Shown: positions 38,586-53,646, counted from the first letter of the stretch. The stretch: 64,000 nucleotides of DNA from Nitrososphaerales archaeon (GCA_965197925.1 CBDAOC010000017.1:128001-192000); one strand, 5' to 3'. Notes: generated from the sequence alone by a model not told the origin. Made by a program: numbers and translations.

Positions 38586-38705
38586 TTAGATATCTTCTGT
38601 TACCAATATTGAGTAACACCAAACAATAATACGAATATTTTTTTAACAGTTTGATACTTGTAAATAATCAGACTAGAATTGGTTAGACTGAAAGAAGAAT
38701 TAATT

Positions 38706-39778
38706 GAGGCTTGGGCGTAATTTAGTTCGAAACGATAAGATCAGGTTCCATTTTTCATTGTTGATATGTTTAGCTCAGACTCGATACTTCTTCGTATATT
38801 ATTTTTGATTGACGTGATTCCTTGGTCAAAACCTAATAGGAAAAGGGGTAGACCATTCTACTATTCTCCTACAGTTATGGTGAGATGCTTCATCGTTAGA
38901 GTATGGATAAGAATACCAATGGTAACAATCGTTAGAGTATGCATAAGAATACCAGGCAACAATGCTTTGTTCTTTTTGATAGACATGCCATACAACAGGA
39001 AGGTAATGAAGGCATGTGGTCTTGATAGGTTGCCAGACAGAAGAACATTCGACAGAAGGTCAAGGCCGTATCAATTGACATAAGATCAAGGATAGATGTT
39101 ATGGGTATGCTCTTCATAAAAGATGGGTTGGTAGACCCAGCCATAGTATCCGTTGACAGTTCATTGTTGAAAGCAAAGGGACATGTATAGCATAGATCAA
39201 ACATGAAGAAGAATGAAGTGCCACGCTCCGGTATAGATACAGATGCTCGATGGGGCTACAGCAGAACCAAGGAATGGATATTAGGATACAAACTGCATCT
39301 AGCGTGTAGCACAGGTTCATTGATAGTTCCATTATCAGCTGATTTCACAACAGCTAACATTACTGATAACAAGATGTATGAAAGCATAACATCTTCATTG
39401 CCTACAGGAATGGTAAGGTATGTTGTAGGAGATGAAGGATATGATGATCACAAGTTATGTGATTTCAGCAGGTATAGAGGGCATCTACTGGTACCCATTG
39501 GAAAGGTACAAGCATACTACAGATAATAATAGACTGGCATTGCTGCAGTTCTATAACTCTGAATTTGGGCAGCATGTATATTCTCGGAGGAGCATAAGCG
39601 TTGAGCCATTGATAGAGCATATGAAGGATGTATTTACCATAGATCCATTGCCAGTTAGAGGATTTGATAAGGTAAAGAGTATAGTGTTGTTATCAGTATT
39701 GTTGTATCAGGTAATGGTTTACTACAATCATCTAACAGGAAGACCATTAAGGGCATTGAAGCACATGTTGGGAAGTTA
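38706..39778 (+). mobile_element. IS family B, copy 3 (defective, right end lost)
   Basis: Left TIR GAGGCTTGGGCGTAATT; internal ~36-bp duplication, TAG at 39188 and frameshifts; ends at the IS5 insertion in its stop-codon region. Confidence 0.9.
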
Positions 39779-42888: not shown

Positions 42889-44007
42889 CTAGTCTTCTTG
42901 AAAGCCCGCATAGGATTCCTTTTTATATTCACAACTTTCTGCTATTTTCTCGATAAACTCTGGTTTCATATAATGAATGTTGTCACCAACCTGTTCTATC
43001 TCTTTCTTTAATTTAGAATAGGCAATGAACTTGCATATCTTTCGTAAAGGAGGATTTAGCCTGGCAAAAGTAGGTCTATTGATTTCTGTAGAAACTTTAT
43101 CTTGTCGTTCATCAGGTGCTATAATGTAAAGATCAATTTTGATGTTGGGTACCATACTTACCAAATCGGCCATCCTTAACAGTCCTGAGTAGATCGCAGT
43201 GCTATGCTCAACCTCGAAGGCAGATAGTATCACATTATCTTTCAACCATAACACATCAATCAATTCTATGATTCTATTGGTTACCTCATCAAACTGTCTA
43301 GGTAACTTCTCTCTTAAATTAGGAATATCTTGGAAACTCTTACCATTAACTTCACGATTTCTATCGTTTCTTGCTACATAAACATCAAGACCAAGATCAG
43401 AACCCAGCTTTAGCAGCAACCACTGAATTTCCTCATGCGATGTCCCTTTTTCCACTTCAGTTACTGGTTCTTGCTCCTTTTCTTCATCTGGGACAGTAAC
43501 AGGTCCAACCTTTGACTCATATACTCGTGGACGTCGCCAGTATTTCCTTTGATCATAATCTCGTTCTACAGGATTCTCTTTTGCGTTCTTTATTGCTTCA
43601 ACTATTATCTTACCATCTTGAGTATTAAACTCAGTAGGCGAACCTCTAAGGGGACCTGTCCAAGACCTTTTTGATTTCATATTATGAAACACAGAGAGTT
43701 TATCCTTCAACTCTTGAATCGGCACGGCTGTCTTTGCGTCAAGGGTATAAATTGTCCTAACTTTAAAACGGCAGGGAAAGGCTTCGTCAGCCCAAATAGG
43801 CGTCTTGTCAAAATAGCACTTTGACTTTACCTCTAAGATACCTATTAGTCTTGAGAGTCCAGTCAAGTAACATATCAGGTAATCTCCGGCATTGATCTTT
43901 TGTGCCACCTTTCTCCTTGTTTCTCGAAAGCCGGTAACATTAGCACCGTTCTTAAGAAATTCTTCCCATGTCTTACCCGTGAATAAATCTAACCAGTATT
44001 TAGTCAT
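42889..44007 (-). CDS. EVE-domain + PD-(D/E)XK nuclease (putative modification-dependent restriction enzyme)
   Basis: KYWL...GDYLICYL...IGILEV EVE/PUA pattern; C-terminal HEEIQ...IDVLW...FEVEHST..YSGLLR nuclease motif. Confidence 0.85.
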   Translation of the reverse strand: MTKYWLDLFTGKTWEEFLKNGANVTGFRETRRKVAQKINAGDYLICYLTGLSRLIGILEVKSKCYFDKTPIWADEAFPCRFKVRTIYTLDAKTAVPIQELKDKLSVFHNMKSKRSWTGPLRGSPTEFNTQDGKIIVEAIKNAKENPVERDYDQRKYWRRPRVYESKVGPVTVPDEEKEQEPVTEVEKGTSHEEIQWLLLKLGSDLGLDVYVARNDRNREVNGKSFQDIPNLREKLPRQFDEVTNRIIELIDVLWLKDNVILSAFEVEHSTAIYSGLLRMADLVSMVPNIKIDLYIIAPDERQDKVSTEINRPTFARLNPPLRKICKFIAYSKLKKEIEQVGDNIHYMKPEFIEKIAESCEYKKESYAGFQED

Positions 44008-44761: not shown

Positions 44762-44953
44762 ATGAGTACAGAAAAGGTTTGGAGGAATGTGTTGGCATGG
44801 CTTGTGAGGATGGGCATTACCTGCAGGCTGCGGGGGTCTTCCATACAATACAAACGGATGCTTCCAAGCGGAAATGGGATTATATACCGCAATGTAGATG
44901 GTTGTCGCATGATAGGTTATTTCAGGCCTGGTGGTAGTGGTCGCAAGGCGTGA
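44762..44953 (+). CDS. Small hypothetical ORF translationally coupled to the Type ISP gene
   Basis: Stop overlaps the next start (GTGATG). Confidence 0.35.
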   Translation: MSTEKVWRNVLAWLVRMGITCRLRGSSIQYKRMLPSGNGIIYRNVDGCRMIGYFRPGGSGRKA

Positions 44954-47900
44954 TGACATTTGATGATGTCCTAGGGAAGATTAAAGGCGAGGCGACAGAC
45001 AGCAGGGATCTTGGCACCAGGTTTGAAAGCATGATGCTGGATTTTTTCAGGACGGACAAGCACTACAAGAACAGGTTCGGCGACAGGGTCTGGCCTTGGA
45101 AAAAATGGGCATATGACAACAAGGTGTACAGGCCTGACGAGGGAATTGACATAGTGGCCGAAGAGGCAAACGGGGATCTGTGCGGAATACAGTGCAAGTG
45201 CTATGCGGATGACCACAGCATAGACCTCAAGGCACTCGGCACGTTCATGACTGCCTGCACCACATACAAAATGAGAAACGTGATCCTGGTCTATACCGGG
45301 GATCATGTCACGGAAAAAGCCGAGCATCATCTCAAAAAGCACAACGGCGCCATCATAACACAGGAGACACTGCGTTCTTCAAGTGTTGACTGGGGCGATT
45401 TTCCAAGGCTCAAGGTGAGGCGGCCGTACGAGCTTTACCCGTTTCAAAAGGCTGCGTTTGACGACTCGATTAAAAATTTCAAAACGAGTAACCGCGGACA
45501 GCTCATCATGGCATGCGGCACCGGCAAGACGCTGGTCTCGCTCAGGATAATGGAAAAAGTGGTACCGCATAACGGCATCGTGCTGTACCTGGTGCCGTCA
45601 ATAACCCTGATACAGCAGAGCATGAGGAGCTGGTCCGAAAACAGGAAGACCGGACAGTACTATGTCGGGGTATGCTCGGACAAGTCGGTATCCGGCGAGG
45701 AGGGAAGCATAGCGGAGCTGGAATCCCCGGTATCGACCAGGCCTGAAGACCTGAAGCGGTATCTGAAGGAGAGGCCAGGCGACCGCACGACCGTCATATT
45801 CTGCACGTACAACTCGATACAGGTGGTGGCTGACTCTCTCGGCGGGCGGAAGATAGATCTGGCACTATGCGACGAGGCGCATCGAACCATCGGCGGTGCT
45901 GGCGATTCATACTTTACCACGGTCCACGAGGATTCGCGTATTCCAATAGAAAAGAGGCTCTACATGACGGCCACACAGAAGATCTTCACGCCCAAGATAA
46001 GAATGGCCGCCGATGCCCAGGAGAAGGTCATCTACGCCATGGATGACGAAGAGGTGTACGGCCCGATCTTCCATGAGCTGGCGTTTGGCGATGCGGTCCA
46101 CAAGCACGGGGCACTCTCGGACTACCGCGTCATAATAGCGTCCATCAGTCAGGCCGACATGAATCCCGACCTGCAGCAAAGCATGGCCGACGATGACGGG
46201 CTGCTTTCACTCGGCACCAAGAACAAGATGGTGGCCACATGGCATGCCCTGAGATATCCTGAAGGCGAGGACGCGGGCGAGATGCTGCTTCAGCATGCAA
46301 TAGTATTCTCCAACACCATAAGGGCGTCAAAAGATTTTACCGGGGAGCATGACGGCGGGCCTGACGGCGGGCCTGACGAGGATCCGGCTGATTCAGGCAA
46401 GACCCCGGAGTACGGTTTCAGGGGGTGGTAAGCAAGGTAAACCAGTCCGAGTCGACAAGCAAGAACGTCTCCGTGCTACACGTGGACGGCGGTACACGCG
46501 CGCTGAAGAGAAAGAGGCATCTCAGGTGGCTTGCGGAAAGCATTGACGACCGGGACGTCTGCCGCATCCTGTCAAATGCCAGGTGCCTGTCCGAGGGAAT
46601 CGACGTTCCGGCGCTTGACTGCGTGGTATTCATGGAGCCAAGAAGATCCGTCGTGGATGTAGTGCAGGCCGTGGGCAGGATCATGCGAAAATCAAGGGGC
46701 AAAAAATACGGATACGTCATACTGCCGGTGGCCGTCCCCGCGGGCGTGGACATCAATGACACGCTTGATGACAACAGGACGTGGGGCACGGTCTGGGAAG
46801 TCCTGAATGCATTGCGTTCACATGACCCTGACCTGAATCTGGACATCAACAAGCTCGTGCTTGACAAGAAAATCTCGAATGGCAGGGTAGGCGAAAAAAT
46901 AAGGCTGATGTCGGTAACGGATAGCGGCCAGGCACCCGACAAAAAATACCTTGACAAATTTTACGCCAAGCTGGCCTCCAGGCTTGTTGAGAAGGTGGGC
47001 GATGCCAACTATTATGACAAGTACGGGGAGAAACTTGGAGAGGCTTCGAGAGCAATAGAGGAAAGAATCACCGCCAAAATAAGGTCATCCGACGCCGTTC
47101 TAGACGAGGTCCGGAACCTGCACGCCAGCCTCAAGACCGTGATAAACGACGCCGTGACCCAGGACGATGCGGTACGCGTAATGGCACAGCACCTTGTACT
47201 CTCGCGCGTCTTTGATGCCATGTTCCAGGGGGAGTTCCAGTCACACAACCCGATATCCGTCGCGCTTGACGGCGTGGCCAAAAAGGTCGGGCTTGACGGG
47301 AGCTCGAGGGTCTTGAGGACTTTTACAGTGAGGCACAGAGCGAGTTGAGGGAGGTTACCACGCGTGAGGCAAGACAGAACTTTATCAAGAAGATTTACGA
47401 GAATTTTTTCAAGAGCGTGTCCAAAAATGAGACCGAGCAGCACGGCGTGGTGTACACGCCTGTCGAGATCGTGGACTTTATCATAAAAAGCATAGAACAT
47501 GTCCTGCGTGAAGAGTTTGGCCGCGGACTTGACAGCAAGGACGTAAAAATCCTTGACCCGTTTGCGGGCACCGGGACGTTCATTTCCAGGCTGCTGGAGT
47601 CCGGGCTAGTCAGGGAAAACATGTATGGGAAGTATCGAGAGGACATGCATGCAAACGAGCTGATCCTTCTTGCGTACTATATTGCCACGGTCAACATAGA
47701 GACCACGTACTCAAGCCTCAACAACATGAAGTACGTGCCGTTTGAAGGAATTGCATACACCGATACACTGCAACAGGATCCCAGATACCTGGAAGACCCA
47801 AGCCACAGGCAGAAGACCGTGACGCTGGACAATGCATTTATCGGTGCCTATAAGCGGGTGACGCGGCAGAACCAGTCATGCATCGATGTGATAATGGGAA

Positions 47901-49599
47901 ATCCGCCATACTCGGCAGAGGACAGCAAAACGCCAATGATGACAATCCCAACGTGAAGTATTTTGAACTTGATGAGAGAATTAAAAATACTTACGCTGTG
48001 AAAACAAAGGCCAGCGCTAAAAAATCTCTATACGATTCATATATCCGCTCGCTCCGGTGGGCATCCGACCGCATCGGCGAGCACGGGGTAATAGGGTTTG
48101 TCACCAACGGCAGTTTTATCAGGTCGGATGCAACAGCCGGCATCAGGTACCATCTGCATGAGGAGTTTACGGACGTGTGGTGCTTTGACCTTAGGGGTAA
48201 TGCGAGAACAAATGGAGAAGATCGCAGACATGAAGGTGGAGGGATTTTCGGTTCCGGTTCACGCGCCCCGATCACAATCATTGTCCTGGTCAGGAATCCA
48301 GCCAGAACAACACATCACATACACTACAAGGACATTGGCAACTATCACAACCGCGAAAAGAAACTGGATATCATAAGGAATACAGGCTCCATTAACGGCA
48401 TTGAAGACTGGCAGGCAATCACGCCGGACAAACATCATAACTGGCTGGACCAGCCCGGTGAGGCAGGCAGTCAGTTTGAGAAATATATCCCAATCGGCGA
48501 TAGCGATACAAAAAGGAACAAAGCCGAGACCGGAATATTCAGGATGTATTCACGTGGTCTAGTATCAGATAGGGATGCCTGGGTCTACAACTCATCCATT
48601 ACGGAACTCGAAAAAAATGTCAGGCATCATATAGGCTATTGTAACACACAGCATCCTGATAATTTTATAATCGATCCCAGACAAGCAAAGATTTCTCGTT
48701 CATTAATTGAACTACTAAAAAGAGGACGGAAAACCCGTTTTGACAGGCGGCATATACGTACGGCATTATACAGGCCGTTATTCAAACAACAACTGTACTA
48801 TGATGATGTCCACATTGAGATGCGATATAGAACGTATTTGTTCTTCCCCAATGGCGGCTCTGAGAACCTGGTGATTGTAGTGCCATACAAATTCATTGGC
48901 AGATCCTCCACATTCATAACGGATGTGACGCCGGATCTACATATTATTCATACAAACCAGTGTTTCCCACTTTACACATACGACAAAGACGGCCGCAGGC
49001 ATGACAACATAACAGACCATACGGTACGGATATTCCGCAAATACTACAGGGATGATTCCATAGGCCGCAAGGACATATTCTACTATGTGTATGGACTGTT
49101 GCACCATCCCGGCTATATCACAAAGTATCAGAACAGCCTGGCACGCATGCTTCCACGCATTCCAATGGCCCCAGATTTTCAGACATTCTCCAAGGCCGGA
49201 AAGGAGCTGGCAGGCCTGCATCTCAACTATGAGAGCTGTCCACGATACGGTCTTGGCGAACCCAAAAATCATGTAAAGAACTTTGCAAGGATGTCATTTG
49301 GCAAAGACAGGACAACGATGCGCATAAACGGTCTTGACATGTTTGACAATATTCCAAAGGTCACGTATCGTGTAAACAGAAGAACGCCATTGGAGTGGGT
49401 AGTTGATAGATACAGATTCACGACAGACGGGGACAGTGGTATTACAAATAATCCGTGTGAGGGGGCTGATCCAATAGCACTCATAGAGAGGGCGGTCTAT
49501 GTGGGCGTGGAATCAGACAAAATCATAAACGAACTGTCAGGGAAGGAGTTCGAGTCAGATGACTGGGAACCCCTAAAAACCGGCCTTGACGCATACTAG
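44950..49599 (+). pseudogene. Type ISP (LlaGI/LlaBIII-like) restriction-modification enzyme in four frameshifted pieces
   Basis: Mrr-like GIDIV...IQCK; helicase MACGTGKT, DEAH, MTAT, NARCLSEGIDVP; MTase DPFAGTGTF and GNPPY; TRD region RDAWVYN...LPRIP; frame breaks near 46425, 47310-47345 and 47915. Confidence 0.92.
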
Positions 49600-50167
49600 A
49601 TACCATGCCATTGCACCTTGGGATCTCACTGATTTTTCAGGACCGCTGCATTAGATGGTTGTGGCGTTATGCTAGGATGTCCCTTGGCCCCTGTGGTTCC
49701 ACAATCTCCTCATCAGCTGACGTACCTACAATGGTTACTGGCAAGCTTCCACATAGAATTCCCCGTCCTTTGATAGGCACCGGAGCCATAACAGTACCCA
49801 TAACCGCAAGAGGTTAATACAGCAAAGGCTAGTTTATCGTTCACTGTATCTTTCACTAAAAACTGGGTAACAACCGGGTATGGAGAATACAGTCATCCGT
49901 TCTATCGCGTATGTTACATTTGATATGGTATCCACATGACGGATTGGGATGCTACCTGTCATAAGACGAGGAATGCCAGGAAGTTCATTAGGGAGCCCCA
50001 GTGCTGAAGGTGAAATTCCTGCCAAAGAAGGTGCCACACCTAAACCCTGTAGAAAAGTTGGTTAATGCACTGATGAAATCAGTTGCATGCCCCAATAGGA
50101 GTCATCGTGGCATAGAAGAGGTAATAACAAATACTTATAGATTCTTCAGAGAATACAGAAAGAATTC

Positions 50168-50365
50168 CTACACCTGACTTAGTTCATCAAGAAGTTGTTT
50201 TCTTTTCTGTTCGGCTATATCTGGGAACTTACCCATACCGTCAAAAAGAATAGCTTTAGAGAGTTCGAATTCTTCACTACAGTGTGAGCACTCGGCAACA
50301 AGATTAGAATTCTTCAATTCGTTTATTATTTCAATATTCCCCAAAGCTCTGAATCCATTAATCAT
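50168..50365 (-). pseudogene. N-terminal stub of a probable Holliday-junction-resolvase-like nuclease
   Basis: LKNSNLVAECSHCSEEFELSKAILFDG..KFP then start of a coiled coil; nuclease part absent; family call from recall. Confidence 0.5.
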
Positions 50366-50535
50366 ACGTTCACTTAATAATATATATGCCCATTTGATGT
50401 GGTAAGATACAGTCCTTAACTCATAAAGATCTAATGTCAATAATAGCAAGTTATTTTTGATGAAAGAAAATAACTTAGGGAGAAACAAAAAGTACAACCA
50501 ACCTTAAATCATCTTAATACTAATTGTAACGGATA

Positions 50536-51639
50536 ATGGTACTTCGGGATAGTGATATCGATAAGTAGGAGTATAAAGAGCATACAAAGGTAAAGCATGA
50601 AATCCTCACGAAATATTTGGATGGTTGGACAAAGATCTTGAGTAGTACCAATGAAAGACTTCTCTATTTCGACTGTTTCGCGGGAAGAGGGGAATACAAG
50701 GAAGGACATCTCGGTTCTCCTATACTTATTATGATGGAAGCACAAAAATACGCTAGTAAAGGATGGGAATTTATCTGCATTGCTGTAGAAAAGGACAAGA
50801 CTAATTTTGACAATCTGAAGAAAGTATACGATAGAGAGAAGCACAGATTTCCAGATGTAAAGTTCAAACCCGTACATGGGACATTCGAGAAGTGTGTAGA
50901 CGAGATATCCGATTATCTTGAGAAAGAAAGATCAAATATAGCTCCTTCATTCTTTTTCATCGATCCGTTTGGTTTCGGCGGTGCGCCATTCAAGCTTGTC
51001 AAAAAGATATTGTCGTATCAGCATACGGAGATTCTAGTTACTTTTATGTCACGTGATATAAGCAGATTCTTCGAAAGTGCTCCACATGTCAAAGCAATCG
51101 AGGAACTGTTTGGAGCTAAGGTAGACCTAAAGGATTTTCCTGTAGATATCACTAGCAGGCAGGATGCACTAGTAGAATTATACAGGAAGCAGCTCGCACA
51201 TGATGCAAAAGCAAAATTCACATGTGCCTACAAATTGAGCCAGACAGATGCAAGGAAGTCGATCTACCATCTGATACATGCTACAAACCACTTCAAAGGA
51301 TTGAAACTGATGAAAGATATCACATATAGCCAAGGTGCTGCTGGCATGTTCACGTACTTCGGACCTGATGAAAGGAAGTTCGGCAAGGATCAGATGCGTC
51401 TTGATGAGTTCAAGACGCCGGAATTCCAGCAATTCCTGCTTAAGCGGTTTGCAGGTAAGACTATAAGTTTCTGGGATATCATGGAAGAAACATACACCGA
51501 GACTCCATACATAGAAAAACATTACAGAAATGCATTAAAAGATTTAAGGGACAGGAATATTGTTGGGTTTAAACCTATCAAACCAAGACCAAGGGGAGGG
51601 CTGGATTATTCGGACAAACTCGTTTTTCAAGCTAGATAA
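50536..51639 (+). CDS. tcmP: Three-Cys-motif partner protein (TcmP-like methyltransferase fold + wHTH); nonsense codon at codon 11
   Basis: HTKVKHEIL..YL..W, YFDCFAGRG, GSP, FFFIDPFG, YHLIHATNHFKGLKLMKD; ATG 50536 is in frame, with TAG at 50566-50568 where Trp is expected. Confidence 0.85.
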
Positions 51640-52745
51640 GCTTTTGGTCCGTAACAGTTGCATGTTAGGGGCGTATAAGGTCGTCCAAGTTCCTTCCACA
51701 TATCAACGGTTTCCTTGCACATAGAAACTTTTGTCAAATTATAGCCAAGCGAGTTTAATTTGTCATAGAAGAATTGATAGATTTCCTTGCGTTGATTAAA
51801 CGATAACTTCTTTCCCCAACCAGAATCTTCCTTGAAATATCTTGTCCATGACATGTCTATCCCTGCCTTATTCGCGTATTTTATCGTCTTCCACAATCCT
51901 CTTGGAGTTCCTAGTATGATTCTTTTTGGCTCGAATTCTGAGAGCAGTTTGTAGAGGAGTTCCTGATAATGCGATTGCCAGCTTTCTACGGGGAATATCG
52001 GATCGACTCTGATCCTTGTATCGTAGCCTGCGTCACTTACCATCTTTGCTGTCATAATCCTTTCTGATAGTGGTGGTGCTGCCTTCTCCCACAGTCTTGC
52101 GACTTCAGCATTTATGCTCCACGCACAAATGACTTGCTTTCTCGGTTTCTTGATAAGGAATTCCACATTACGTGGACCAAACTTGCTCAGAGTTGCAAGT
52201 TTGTGTTTTTTCTGAGTTTCAAATTTATCTGCTATCTTCTCCATCAACGATGGTAACATCAATGAATCGGAAAGCTCGCCGCTGTTGAAAATCGATGGTT
52301 CTTTGATATTCTCAAAGGCTTCATCCAATGCTGGCATGATATACTTCGGATCTATGGGACTAGGTTTCATTCTCCCTCTCATCGTACCACGTAGATAGCA
52401 GTAGTTGCAGTCAAGGGGACAGCCGAATGCCCATCTAAGCTCCCAGAATCTTCCACATGCTATGTCTTCTGGAGTCTTGTGGAACAAAGATACGATGTTT
52501 TTTCCAAAAGAAGTAACCTCTTCCATTTTCTTCGGTGAAATTATCTCTGGATGCTGTAACGATGTTACTGTTTCTGGTTTTACGAATTCTAGAATAGTTT
52601 TTGACCTTTTGCTTGCACTGAATCGCTTATTCTGCCTAATTGTCCTCCATGCCTTGTACGCTGCCTTGCGTTGGCGAGTGCTTGCACTGATTTTATTATT
52701 CTCTTGCTCTACTGAATCTACCAATATAGTAAAACAAACCAACAA
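51627..52745 (-). CDS. Spore-photoproduct-lyase-like radical SAM protein
   Basis: GCPLDCNYCYL (CxxxCxxC), FNSGELSDSL, LSK, SIN...WEKAAPPLSER, RVDPI, GTPR, CKE...CNC. Confidence 0.88.
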   Translation of the reverse strand: MLVCFTILVDSVEQENNKISASTRQRKAAYKAWRTIRQNKRFSASKRSKTILEFVKPETVTSLQHPEIISPKKMEEVTSFGKNIVSLFHKTPEDIACGRFWELRWAFGCPLDCNYCYLRGTMRGRMKPSPIDPKYIMPALDEAFENIKEPSIFNSGELSDSLMLPSLMEKIADKFETQKKHKLATLSKFGPRNVEFLIKKPRKQVICAWSINAEVARLWEKAAPPLSERIMTAKMVSDAGYDTRIRVDPIFPVESWQSHYQELLYKLLSEFEPKRIILGTPRGLWKTIKYANKAGIDMSWTRYFKEDSGWGKKLSFNQRKEIYQFFYDKLNSLGYNLTKVSMCKETVDMWKELGRPYTPLTCNCYGPKAYLA

Positions 52746-52763
52746 ACCTTAGTTTAAACTTGT

Positions 52764-53059
52764 TTAACTTTCCTGCAGTCGACAATTGCACAGAAATTTC
52801 CTTGCACCGCATTCTGTTACTAATCGTGCCCACGTTTCTCCCGATTCCTTACAGACACCCATCCGTTTGAATTTCAGGCTCTTGAAGGCAAACTTGTACA
52901 TTTCCCATCGTAGATTGCTTTCCAAGTGGTATCTCCTGTCACTTTCTCTACATGGAAGAAGATCTTTCAGATCCTTTGATAACATACCGCGCAGAGTAGG
53001 GAATGCGCGGTGTTCCAACAACACCATACAATTTCATTTTATTTAATTTCTTGAACAGG
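52764..53059 (-). pseudogene. C-terminal remnant of a second SPL-like radical SAM paralog
   Basis: ...KLYGVVGTPR/AFPTLR...RWEMYKF...MGVCKESGETW...LCNC parallels the neighbour's GTPR...RKEIYQF...SMCKETVDMW...CNC; truncated at the IS fragment. Confidence 0.75.
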
Positions 53060-53207
53060 TACCCCTTTTCCTATTAGGTTTTGTCCGAGGAATCACGTCA
53101 ATCAAAAATAATATACGAAGAAGTATCGAGTCTGAGCTAAACATATTACCAATGAAAATTGAAACCTGATCTTATCGTTTCGACCGGCTTAATTATGCCC
53201 AAGCCTC
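53060..53207 (-). mobile_element. IS family B, left-end fragment (148 bp)
   Basis: Matches the ends of copies 1-3, including TIR AATTATGCCCAAGCCTC. Confidence 0.9.
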
Positions 53208-53646
53208 ATCTAGTTGGAAGGCTATAAGATTCGTTCCACTAACAATTGGGTTACTAATGTTATATACATTTTTTATACACGATTACCTCGATGCAATACC
53301 AATTCTGAATTGGGGTTGGTTGGGTTATAACATAGCTCTGGGTCCATTAGGTGATCAGGGAATATATGGGATTTTGCCCTTTGTTCCAGTATTGATCTAT
53401 ATGTTATCACTCCTTAATTATTATGAAGAGATGTACTTCAGGAAGAGCAAAAAACTTGTTGTGTTATGGTCCTTTTTGCACATAACAATGGGTGTACAAC
53501 ACGTAATACTAGTACTATTACCCATAGGTTTCATCTATAAATATATCCATGATAAACATGGGTTAAAAAACTCCTATTCAGCTCATTTTTCCACAAATAT
53601 ATTCTTAGTATTCTCCATGGTGATTTCGTATATTTTATCTATCTGA
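53208..53646 (+). pseudogene. 5'-truncated CPBP/Abi-like intramembrane protease
   Basis: EEMYFR, WSFLH and AHFSTN motifs; the frame runs back towards the IS end. Confidence 0.6.

Follow-up and report, generated by a model that had tools for sequence, protein, structure and literature searches.

Remains of a mobile archaeal cassette that combines TcmP with two radical SAM genes related to spore photoproduct lyase

TcmP proteins and their radical SAM partners are widespread and catalogued, and they carry no assigned reaction. The TcmP pair itself is already known as an entry in such catalogues (TIGR04474; PDC-M30/M41). In the papers covered by our literature search, TcmP appeared only in table rows, and no functional study of TcmP, DUF5131 or the three-gene combination described here was found among them. 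A related combination, the radical SAM mobile pair A/B (TIGR04471/TIGR04470), has a MarR regulator and is not known to include TcmP. Radical SAM enzymes that act on DNA are, to our knowledge, very few, namely spore photoproduct lyase (SPL) and the phage protein gp53. In SPL a cysteine is the hydrogen donor; as reported in PMC3467042, cleavage persists in C140A/S mutants, but the thymine radical that they leave behind goes on to form adducts. Gp53 of phage M6 is described in PMC8989533 as an SPL-like radical SAM enzyme that installs a DNA modification. SPL-like, MJ0683-like and DUF5131 proteins are placed together in one RadicalSAM.org megacluster (PMC9477430).

The DNA analyzed here, referred to as the window, is a stretch of 64,000 nucleotides from a Nitrososphaerales archaeon. 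Its locus of interest preserves, in decayed form, a mobile three-gene cassette of archaea made up of TcmP and two SPL-related radical SAM genes. The core of this copy is dead, with a stop codon in TcmP and the second paralog deleted by an insertion sequence (IS), and only one radical SAM gene, assigned to what we call clade B, is intact. The earlier note had suspected an inactivated copy, and this is supported. The features are as follows.

42889-44007, minus strand: EVE domain plus nuclease, putative modification-dependent restriction enzyme (PF01878; PADLOC REase_II, E 6.5e-16)
44950-49599, plus strand: Type ISP restriction-modification gene split into four ORFs (PF22240, PF18135, PF13156, PF02384; PADLOC REase_MTase_IIG)
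50536-51639, plus strand: TcmP pseudogene, ATG at 50536, TAA at 51639, 367 codons (TIGR04474, PF22560, PDC-M30A)
50566-50568, plus strand: premature in-frame TAG at TcmP codon 11, where the database allele P0133 has Trp
51627-52724, minus strand: intact clade-B radical SAM gene of SPL fold, protein P0001, 365 aa (CPLDCNYC; PF20903, 48 bits)
52764-53059, minus strand: remnant of a type-C SPL-like radical SAM paralog; about 100 codons from the C terminus are left, with a frameshift near 53010, and the N-terminal two thirds are deleted
53060-53208, minus strand: 5' end of an IS (end and first transposase codons), 149 bp, fused to the remnant (113 non-self genomic blastn rows)

The locus shares with the TcmP/DUF5131 pair (TIGR04474, PF07505) a TcmP that passes TIGR04474 and matches PDC-M30A. 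It differs in its radical SAM proteins, which have a canonical CxxxCxxC motif and include clade B as a constant third enzyme; P0001 and type C do not match PDC-M30B/M41B, and component B was matched only at a second cassette of the same genome (L002). As in the mobile pair A/B, DUF5131-like and SPL-like radical SAM genes travel together, but the radical SAM types found next to clade B reach at best 87 and 84 bits against cut-offs of 410 and 355 (TIGR04470/04471), and P0001 matches neither profile. The likeness to thymidine hypermodification by phage M6, drawn from its description in PMC8989533, may lie in an SPL-like radical SAM enzyme that tailors a transferase-modified base; the kinase, amino-acid transferase and 5-hmdU genes of that pathway do not recur at cassette loci. 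Unlike in restriction-modification systems, no cognate nuclease is conserved with TcmP in the 30 long loci scanned.

The earlier note had read the first gene as a TcmP-like protein with a YFDCFAGRG stretch, a DPFG motif and a C-terminal wHTH, and profile searches agree. The window ORF scores 143 bits on TIGR04474, above the curated cut-off of 53, and 42 bits on PF22560 (GMT-wHTH, cut-off 27), and it matches PADLOC PDC-M30A with E 9e-29. The near-identical allele P0133 (367 aa) reaches 172 bits on TIGR04474 and E 6e-35 on PDC-M30A. The Trp at codon 11 is at least 90% conserved in the family alignment, and a restart at 50617 would cost the protein its invariant K20 and Y27. Sequencing error was rejected as the origin of the lesions: in the contigs of 4/4 public runs (three studies; one run may be the source), the stop and the frame break of the remnant read as in the window, without a differing base or a gap.

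A structure model of the intact allele (pLDDT 90) revealed an RlmJ-like SAM methyltransferase fold with a C-terminal wHTH. The best match is RlmJ, the 23S rRNA A2030 N6-methyltransferase (6QE5; Z 17.5, rmsd 3.1, 214 residues aligned), followed by its Legionella homolog and Trm1, and in the Foldseek ranking other methyltransferases stand level with RlmJ, mixing tRNA and small-molecule enzymes. TcmP differs from RlmJ in sequence (10% identity), in its DPFG motif, in the added wHTH and in its mobile context; a TcmP profile run against PDB sequences gave no match. In a 64-row alignment D46, F48 and G50 of the class I SAM-binding motif I are invariant, as is the Asp-Pro of motif IV. A tally of 78 TcmP sequences gave DPFG in 50, DPEG in 14 and another or no motif IV in 14, with motif I varying as well. 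The motif IV consensus of amino-methyltransferases is DPPY, which RlmJ carries where TcmP has DPFG. Since motif IV is not DPPY and motif I is variable, methyl transfer to a base by TcmP is not assured. In one of the run contigs (X5) a 163-bp stretch of TcmP (51167-51329) contains seven substitutions, all of them amino-acid-changing, and those at codons 230 and 231 go towards residues of distant homologs; this contig possibly carries a recombined TcmP allele.

TcmP adjoins, with a tail-to-tail overlap of 13 bp at 51627-51639 that had been noted before, the clade-B gene as its three-Cys radical SAM-type partner. The cluster-binding C102, C106 and C109 of P0001 are invariant. The protein scores 21 bits on PF04055 (cut-off 29.5), and its model (pLDDT 75) has radical SAM enzymes with a partial TIM barrel as top fold matches. 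The best of these is SPL (4FHC; Z 15.5, rmsd 3.5, 240 aligned), which together with the PF20903 match supports the SPL fold that had been proposed. Clade B thus has the fold of SPL (SplB), its cluster motif and both flanking tyrosines. It is nevertheless not an SPL, as judged from its sequence and as the earlier note had maintained: on the SPL equivalog TIGR04070 P0001 scores 55.7 bits, below the cut-off of 400 (type C 118 bits, type A 76). In two profile alignments the hydrogen-donor position Cys140/141 corresponds to Glu150 of P0001, and Glu occupies it in 135/141 representatives. The base-flipping hairpin of SPL (Arg304/Tyr305) falls outside the aligned stretch, and residues 276-305 of the model have a pLDDT below 50. 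Clade B further differs from SPL by its methyltransferase partner, by a basic N-terminal helix and by four additional cysteines, C90, C336, C355 and C357, which are invariant in all 127-138 representatives aligned per site and suggest a second metal site. The helix (AxxKAW) occurs in 62/65 clade-B sequences and in 0 of the other 51 rows of a FastTree phylogeny (116 rows), in which a branch with support 100 sets clade B apart; used alone as a query, the helix gave no usable Atlas match.

Upstream of the clade-B gene the earlier note had seen a second, diverged paralog. The remnant at 52764-53059 indeed proved to be a true SPL-like paralog, 54-60% identical over 80 aa (E 6e-29 to 2e-34) to intact type-C paralogs, which in L005, L043 and L047 stand upstream of a clade-B gene. 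Its similarity to the neighboring clade-B protein is weak (28% over 53 aa, E 8e-4), and it has no Pfam or NCBIfam match. An assignment to type A or A2 was rejected, with at most 36% identity over about 50 aa. The GTPR that had been listed as common to both radical SAM paralogs did not hold up, because type C has GTLRAF at this place and the GTPR of the window is a product of the frame break near 53010. The lost N-terminal two thirds include the cluster motif, and the missing 5' part was not found elsewhere in the assembly. The IS end that cuts the remnant at 53060 matches an IS at 38705-38850 of the window.

The placement of the cassette inside a restriction island needs correction. It adjoins the split Type ISP gene and is not part of it: the GC content is about 40% in the cassette against 54% in the Type ISP gene (~0.54 in its core), and a transposase-like remnant lies between them. 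A copy of this gene is found at G000:C15:85037-89697; the two are 97% identical and both split (four ORFs in the window, two in the copy), and their differences are concentrated in two patches and the C-terminal specificity region. The GC content unlike that of the cassette and the copy on C15 indicate that the Type ISP gene was likely acquired separately. Within the transposase-like remnant, which we take to be of IS630 type, a 36-bp stretch (49958-49993) recurs in a contig of all four runs with the same 35 letters between the copies, and the assembly has one copy only. A short CxxC ORF (50168-50497), divergent from TcmP and without a Pfam match, is apparently truncated by this transposase remnant. 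No tRNA was found in the window, and a promoter/terminator scan of the locus, of a kind not suited to archaea, stayed at chance level. The architecture of the EVE-nuclease gene further upstream has been described (PMC7641849). The nearest named relatives of the window's proteins are Nitrososphaerota.

The scans for relatives yielded 28 GTDB loci, three viral loci and the best 80 of 301 metagenome loci. Together with the genome's own copies, 104 loci with a full clade-B gene were obtained and grouped into 67 clusters at 90% identity, so that all counts over 67 clusters rest on a set that includes the best 80 of 301 metagenome loci. As the earlier note had expected, radical SAM homologs keep company with both partners. 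TcmP lies within 1.3 kb of clade B in 62/67 clusters and in 38/39 with flanks, and the two genes are arranged tail-to-tail in 48/67. A second radical SAM gene within 3.5 kb is present in 63/67; the four misses are short contigs, and among clusters with at least 2.6 kb on both sides it is present in 26/26. When counted within 2.6 kb and without the type E profile, the figures are 60/67 and 23/26. The second slot is filled by seven subfamilies (A 25, DUF5131 16, D1 9, C 4, D2 4, E 4 and A2 2 of the 67 clusters), labelled with profiles built in this analysis. By their Pfam matches, A, A2 and C belong with SPL and D2 with Radical_SAM, and D1 and E show a weak match to DUF5131; L002 is among the DUF5131 cases. 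On the clade-B tree the type in this slot switches at least 13 times, against a minimum of 6. Hence the predicted cassette of two SPL-like genes and TcmP holds as to the co-occurrence of TcmP with a second radical SAM gene, but not as to the identity of that gene, and TcmP with a single radical SAM gene is a commoner unit than the triad. By sequence comparison the conserved unit is clade B plus TcmP plus any of seven radical SAM subfamilies of the SPL/DUF5131 group.

The suggested enrichment in defense islands turned out to be a tendency and not a rule. Pfam matches of defense type occur within 6 kb in 14/30 long loci and defense or mobile-element markers in 18/30, and in 12/30 the neighbors are only housekeeping genes, IS or unannotated. 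Such defense or mobile-element neighbors are absent from all 11 partner-less homologs taken from the class sample described below (Fisher p 0.007, which kinship and unequal thresholds make look stronger than it is); when L167, which came from a different search, is counted too, the figure is 1/12 (p 0.03). In this control the E-value was stricter, the flanks were shorter and the genomes were related. Across the 30 loci (194 ORFs scanned) no nuclease family is a constant neighbor.

The linkage is asymmetric. In a class-wide sample of 401 genomes of one class (taken to be Bathyarchaeia), TcmP is present in 21 and has an adjacent radical SAM gene in 18; the three partner-less TcmP genes are truncated, broken or at a contig end. 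Only 4/18 of the TcmP-radical SAM units have clade B and 14/18 lack it, whereas all four clade-B loci also hold another radical SAM gene. A fusion survey of 150 family representatives at 50% identity (30 longer than 450 aa; 39 and 30 proteins scanned) revealed four TcmP-radical SAM fusions above the TIGR04474 cut-off, all with type A rather than B. Other fusions in this set involve ParB (15), one type I specificity domain and HTH domains, and five representatives have intein or LAGLIDADG insertions. Long fused clade-B forms were not found among 1710 candidates of 640-2000 aa, which is weak evidence. Because all well-flanked clade-B clusters have a second enzyme, most TcmP-radical SAM units of the class sample are without clade B and the TcmP fusions are of type A, we conclude from these sequences that TcmP and one radical SAM enzyme form the core and that clade B is an add-on dependent on it.

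The genome (G000) holds the cassette in three states: complete at L002, without clade B at L001 and without the core in the window. At L002:8602-12782 (G000:C20:593601-597781), near a SNF2 helicase-PLD gene, lie apparently intact clade-B, TcmP and DUF5131 genes and a second, short TcmP. At L001:7172-10230 (G000:C17:104171-107229) DUF5131 is intact (dN/dS 0.11) and TcmP is full length (dN/dS 0.62), and the clade-B gene is broken by many small indels and stops, with 16 gap openings relative to L002. A DCD domain fused to a DNA methylase and split into two ORFs was noticed at L003:749-1967 (G000:C20). These three natural states, the core/add-on asymmetry, the seven-way exchange and the four-Cys signature are new here.

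What the cassette does can be proposed by analogy. The reading we favor, to which we give about an even chance, is that its proteins build a modified DNA base in steps. TcmP would bind DNA via its wHTH and, with SAM as donor, transfer a methyl group to an exocyclic amine, the kind of reaction that RlmJ performs on rRNA. The core radical SAM enzyme shares its fold with SPL, a lyase that flips its target base; it would abstract a hydrogen atom from the base and, having no Cys donor, would rearrange or couple the base radical instead of quenching it to a normal base, by analogy with the SPL Cys mutants. Phage M6 gp53 (PMC8989533) serves as the precedent. Clade B would act last, on the product of the core pair; this is proposed because clade B was not found without the core and the core often occurs without clade B. 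DNA is the presumed substrate on account of the SPL fold, the wHTH and the ParB and specificity-domain fusions. The mark could protect the DNA of the element or of the host in conflicts, and the L002 cassette could still supply a core to the intact clade-B enzyme of the window. Several findings speak against stepwise modification: accepting the products of seven distant subfamilies ill fits one narrow chemistry for the add-on, the cassette has no nuclease as a constant companion, 12/30 loci are surrounded by housekeeping, IS or unannotated neighbors alone, motif IV of TcmP is not DPPY, the substrate of RlmJ is an RNA, and partner-less relatives stand among housekeeping and repair genes, which fits repair. 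The interpretation in the earlier note is thereby supported in part, with base modification as its hypothetical component. If modification were shown, a new DNA base and a new radical chemistry would follow. We are more doubtful about a modular, cell-encoded DNA hypermodification, in which the methyltransferase and an exchangeable radical SAM enzyme would set a first mark and clade B, with its second four-Cys site, would convert it into an undescribed base; were this true, archaea and their viruses would possess an epigenetic mark made by radical chemistry, or else a new means of telling self from non-self.

The foremost alternative, which we consider unlikely, is direct-reversal repair or de-modification. 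Here the radical SAM enzymes would undo a lesion or an invader's modified base, two of them would widen the lesion range, and TcmP would target or cap. SPL is the sole solved relative by sequence and also the best fold match, with both cluster-flanking tyrosines kept; among solo homologs, the one at L158 adjoins MCM and an archaeal helicase and the one at L164 a Y-family polymerase, and interchangeable second enzymes fit independent, additive activities. Repair would, however, need no methyltransferase, yet TcmP is fused or adjacent, and the donor Cys is replaced by Glu nearly throughout. The patchy distribution also argues against it, clade B being present in 2/41 genomes of the host's order, the own genome included. 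Repair, if shown, would define the first lesion for the large SPL-like family.

We judge it distinctly unlikely that the cassette is an anti-invader effector without self-marking, with TcmP as a SAM-binding DNA sensor or scaffold and radical enzymes that damage or cross-link incoming DNA or make a toxic nucleotide. The non-canonical motif IV of TcmP would suit such a role, as would its fast divergence next to a conserved clade B and the listing of TcmP+DUF5131 by PADLOC as candidates PDC-M30/M41. PMC12445080 describes a TcmP co-regulated beside Hna in Sinorhizobium, and radical SAM defense systems exist, as described for Ophion (10.1101/2025.09.30.679545). Against this stand the cassettes that sit in proviruses themselves (L032, L069, L082), and an enzyme would be expected to keep motif I positions and the motif IV Asp-Pro invariant, as TcmP does in the 64-row alignment.

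An RNA or small-molecule substrate, that is, methylation and radical tailoring of a nucleoside or metabolite, appears improbable. The best TcmP matches, RlmJ and Trm1, are RNA methyltransferases, and a second metal site, if present, could allow for radical chemistry of another kind; the ParB, type I specificity-domain and HTH fusions and the SPL fold point instead to double-stranded DNA, and no transporter or biosynthetic genes recur beside the cassette in the 30 loci scanned. Finally, that the triad is not one pathway, and that integration hot spots common to both have simply gathered clade B-TcmP pairs next to pairs of TcmP with other radical SAM genes, is very improbable: two TcmP and two radical SAM genes do occur at L002, L021, L041, L043 and L049, gene order and orientation vary and clade B's TcmP partners come from distant clades, but most loci share a single TcmP, the second enzyme persists in every well-flanked cluster across the type changes on the clade-B tree, and the rarity of TcmP in the class sample makes chance clustering improbable.

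Some further arrangements were observed beside these loci. At L155, L156 and L163, the partner of the SPL-like gene is another methyltransferase, which is shorter, carries DLFAGKG and does not belong to TIGR04474; in one case the pair lies beside a terminase; judging from the sequences, this is a parallel partner family of SPL-like genes. Partner-less SPL-like genes of L157-L162 and L164-L166 lie among housekeeping genes (MCM, helicase, EF-2, RpoE', Y-family polymerase) and are candidates for an archaeal repair enzyme. At L021, L070, L075, L108 and L149 stand-alone ParB-like genes are located directly beside type A/A2, mirroring the ParB fusions.
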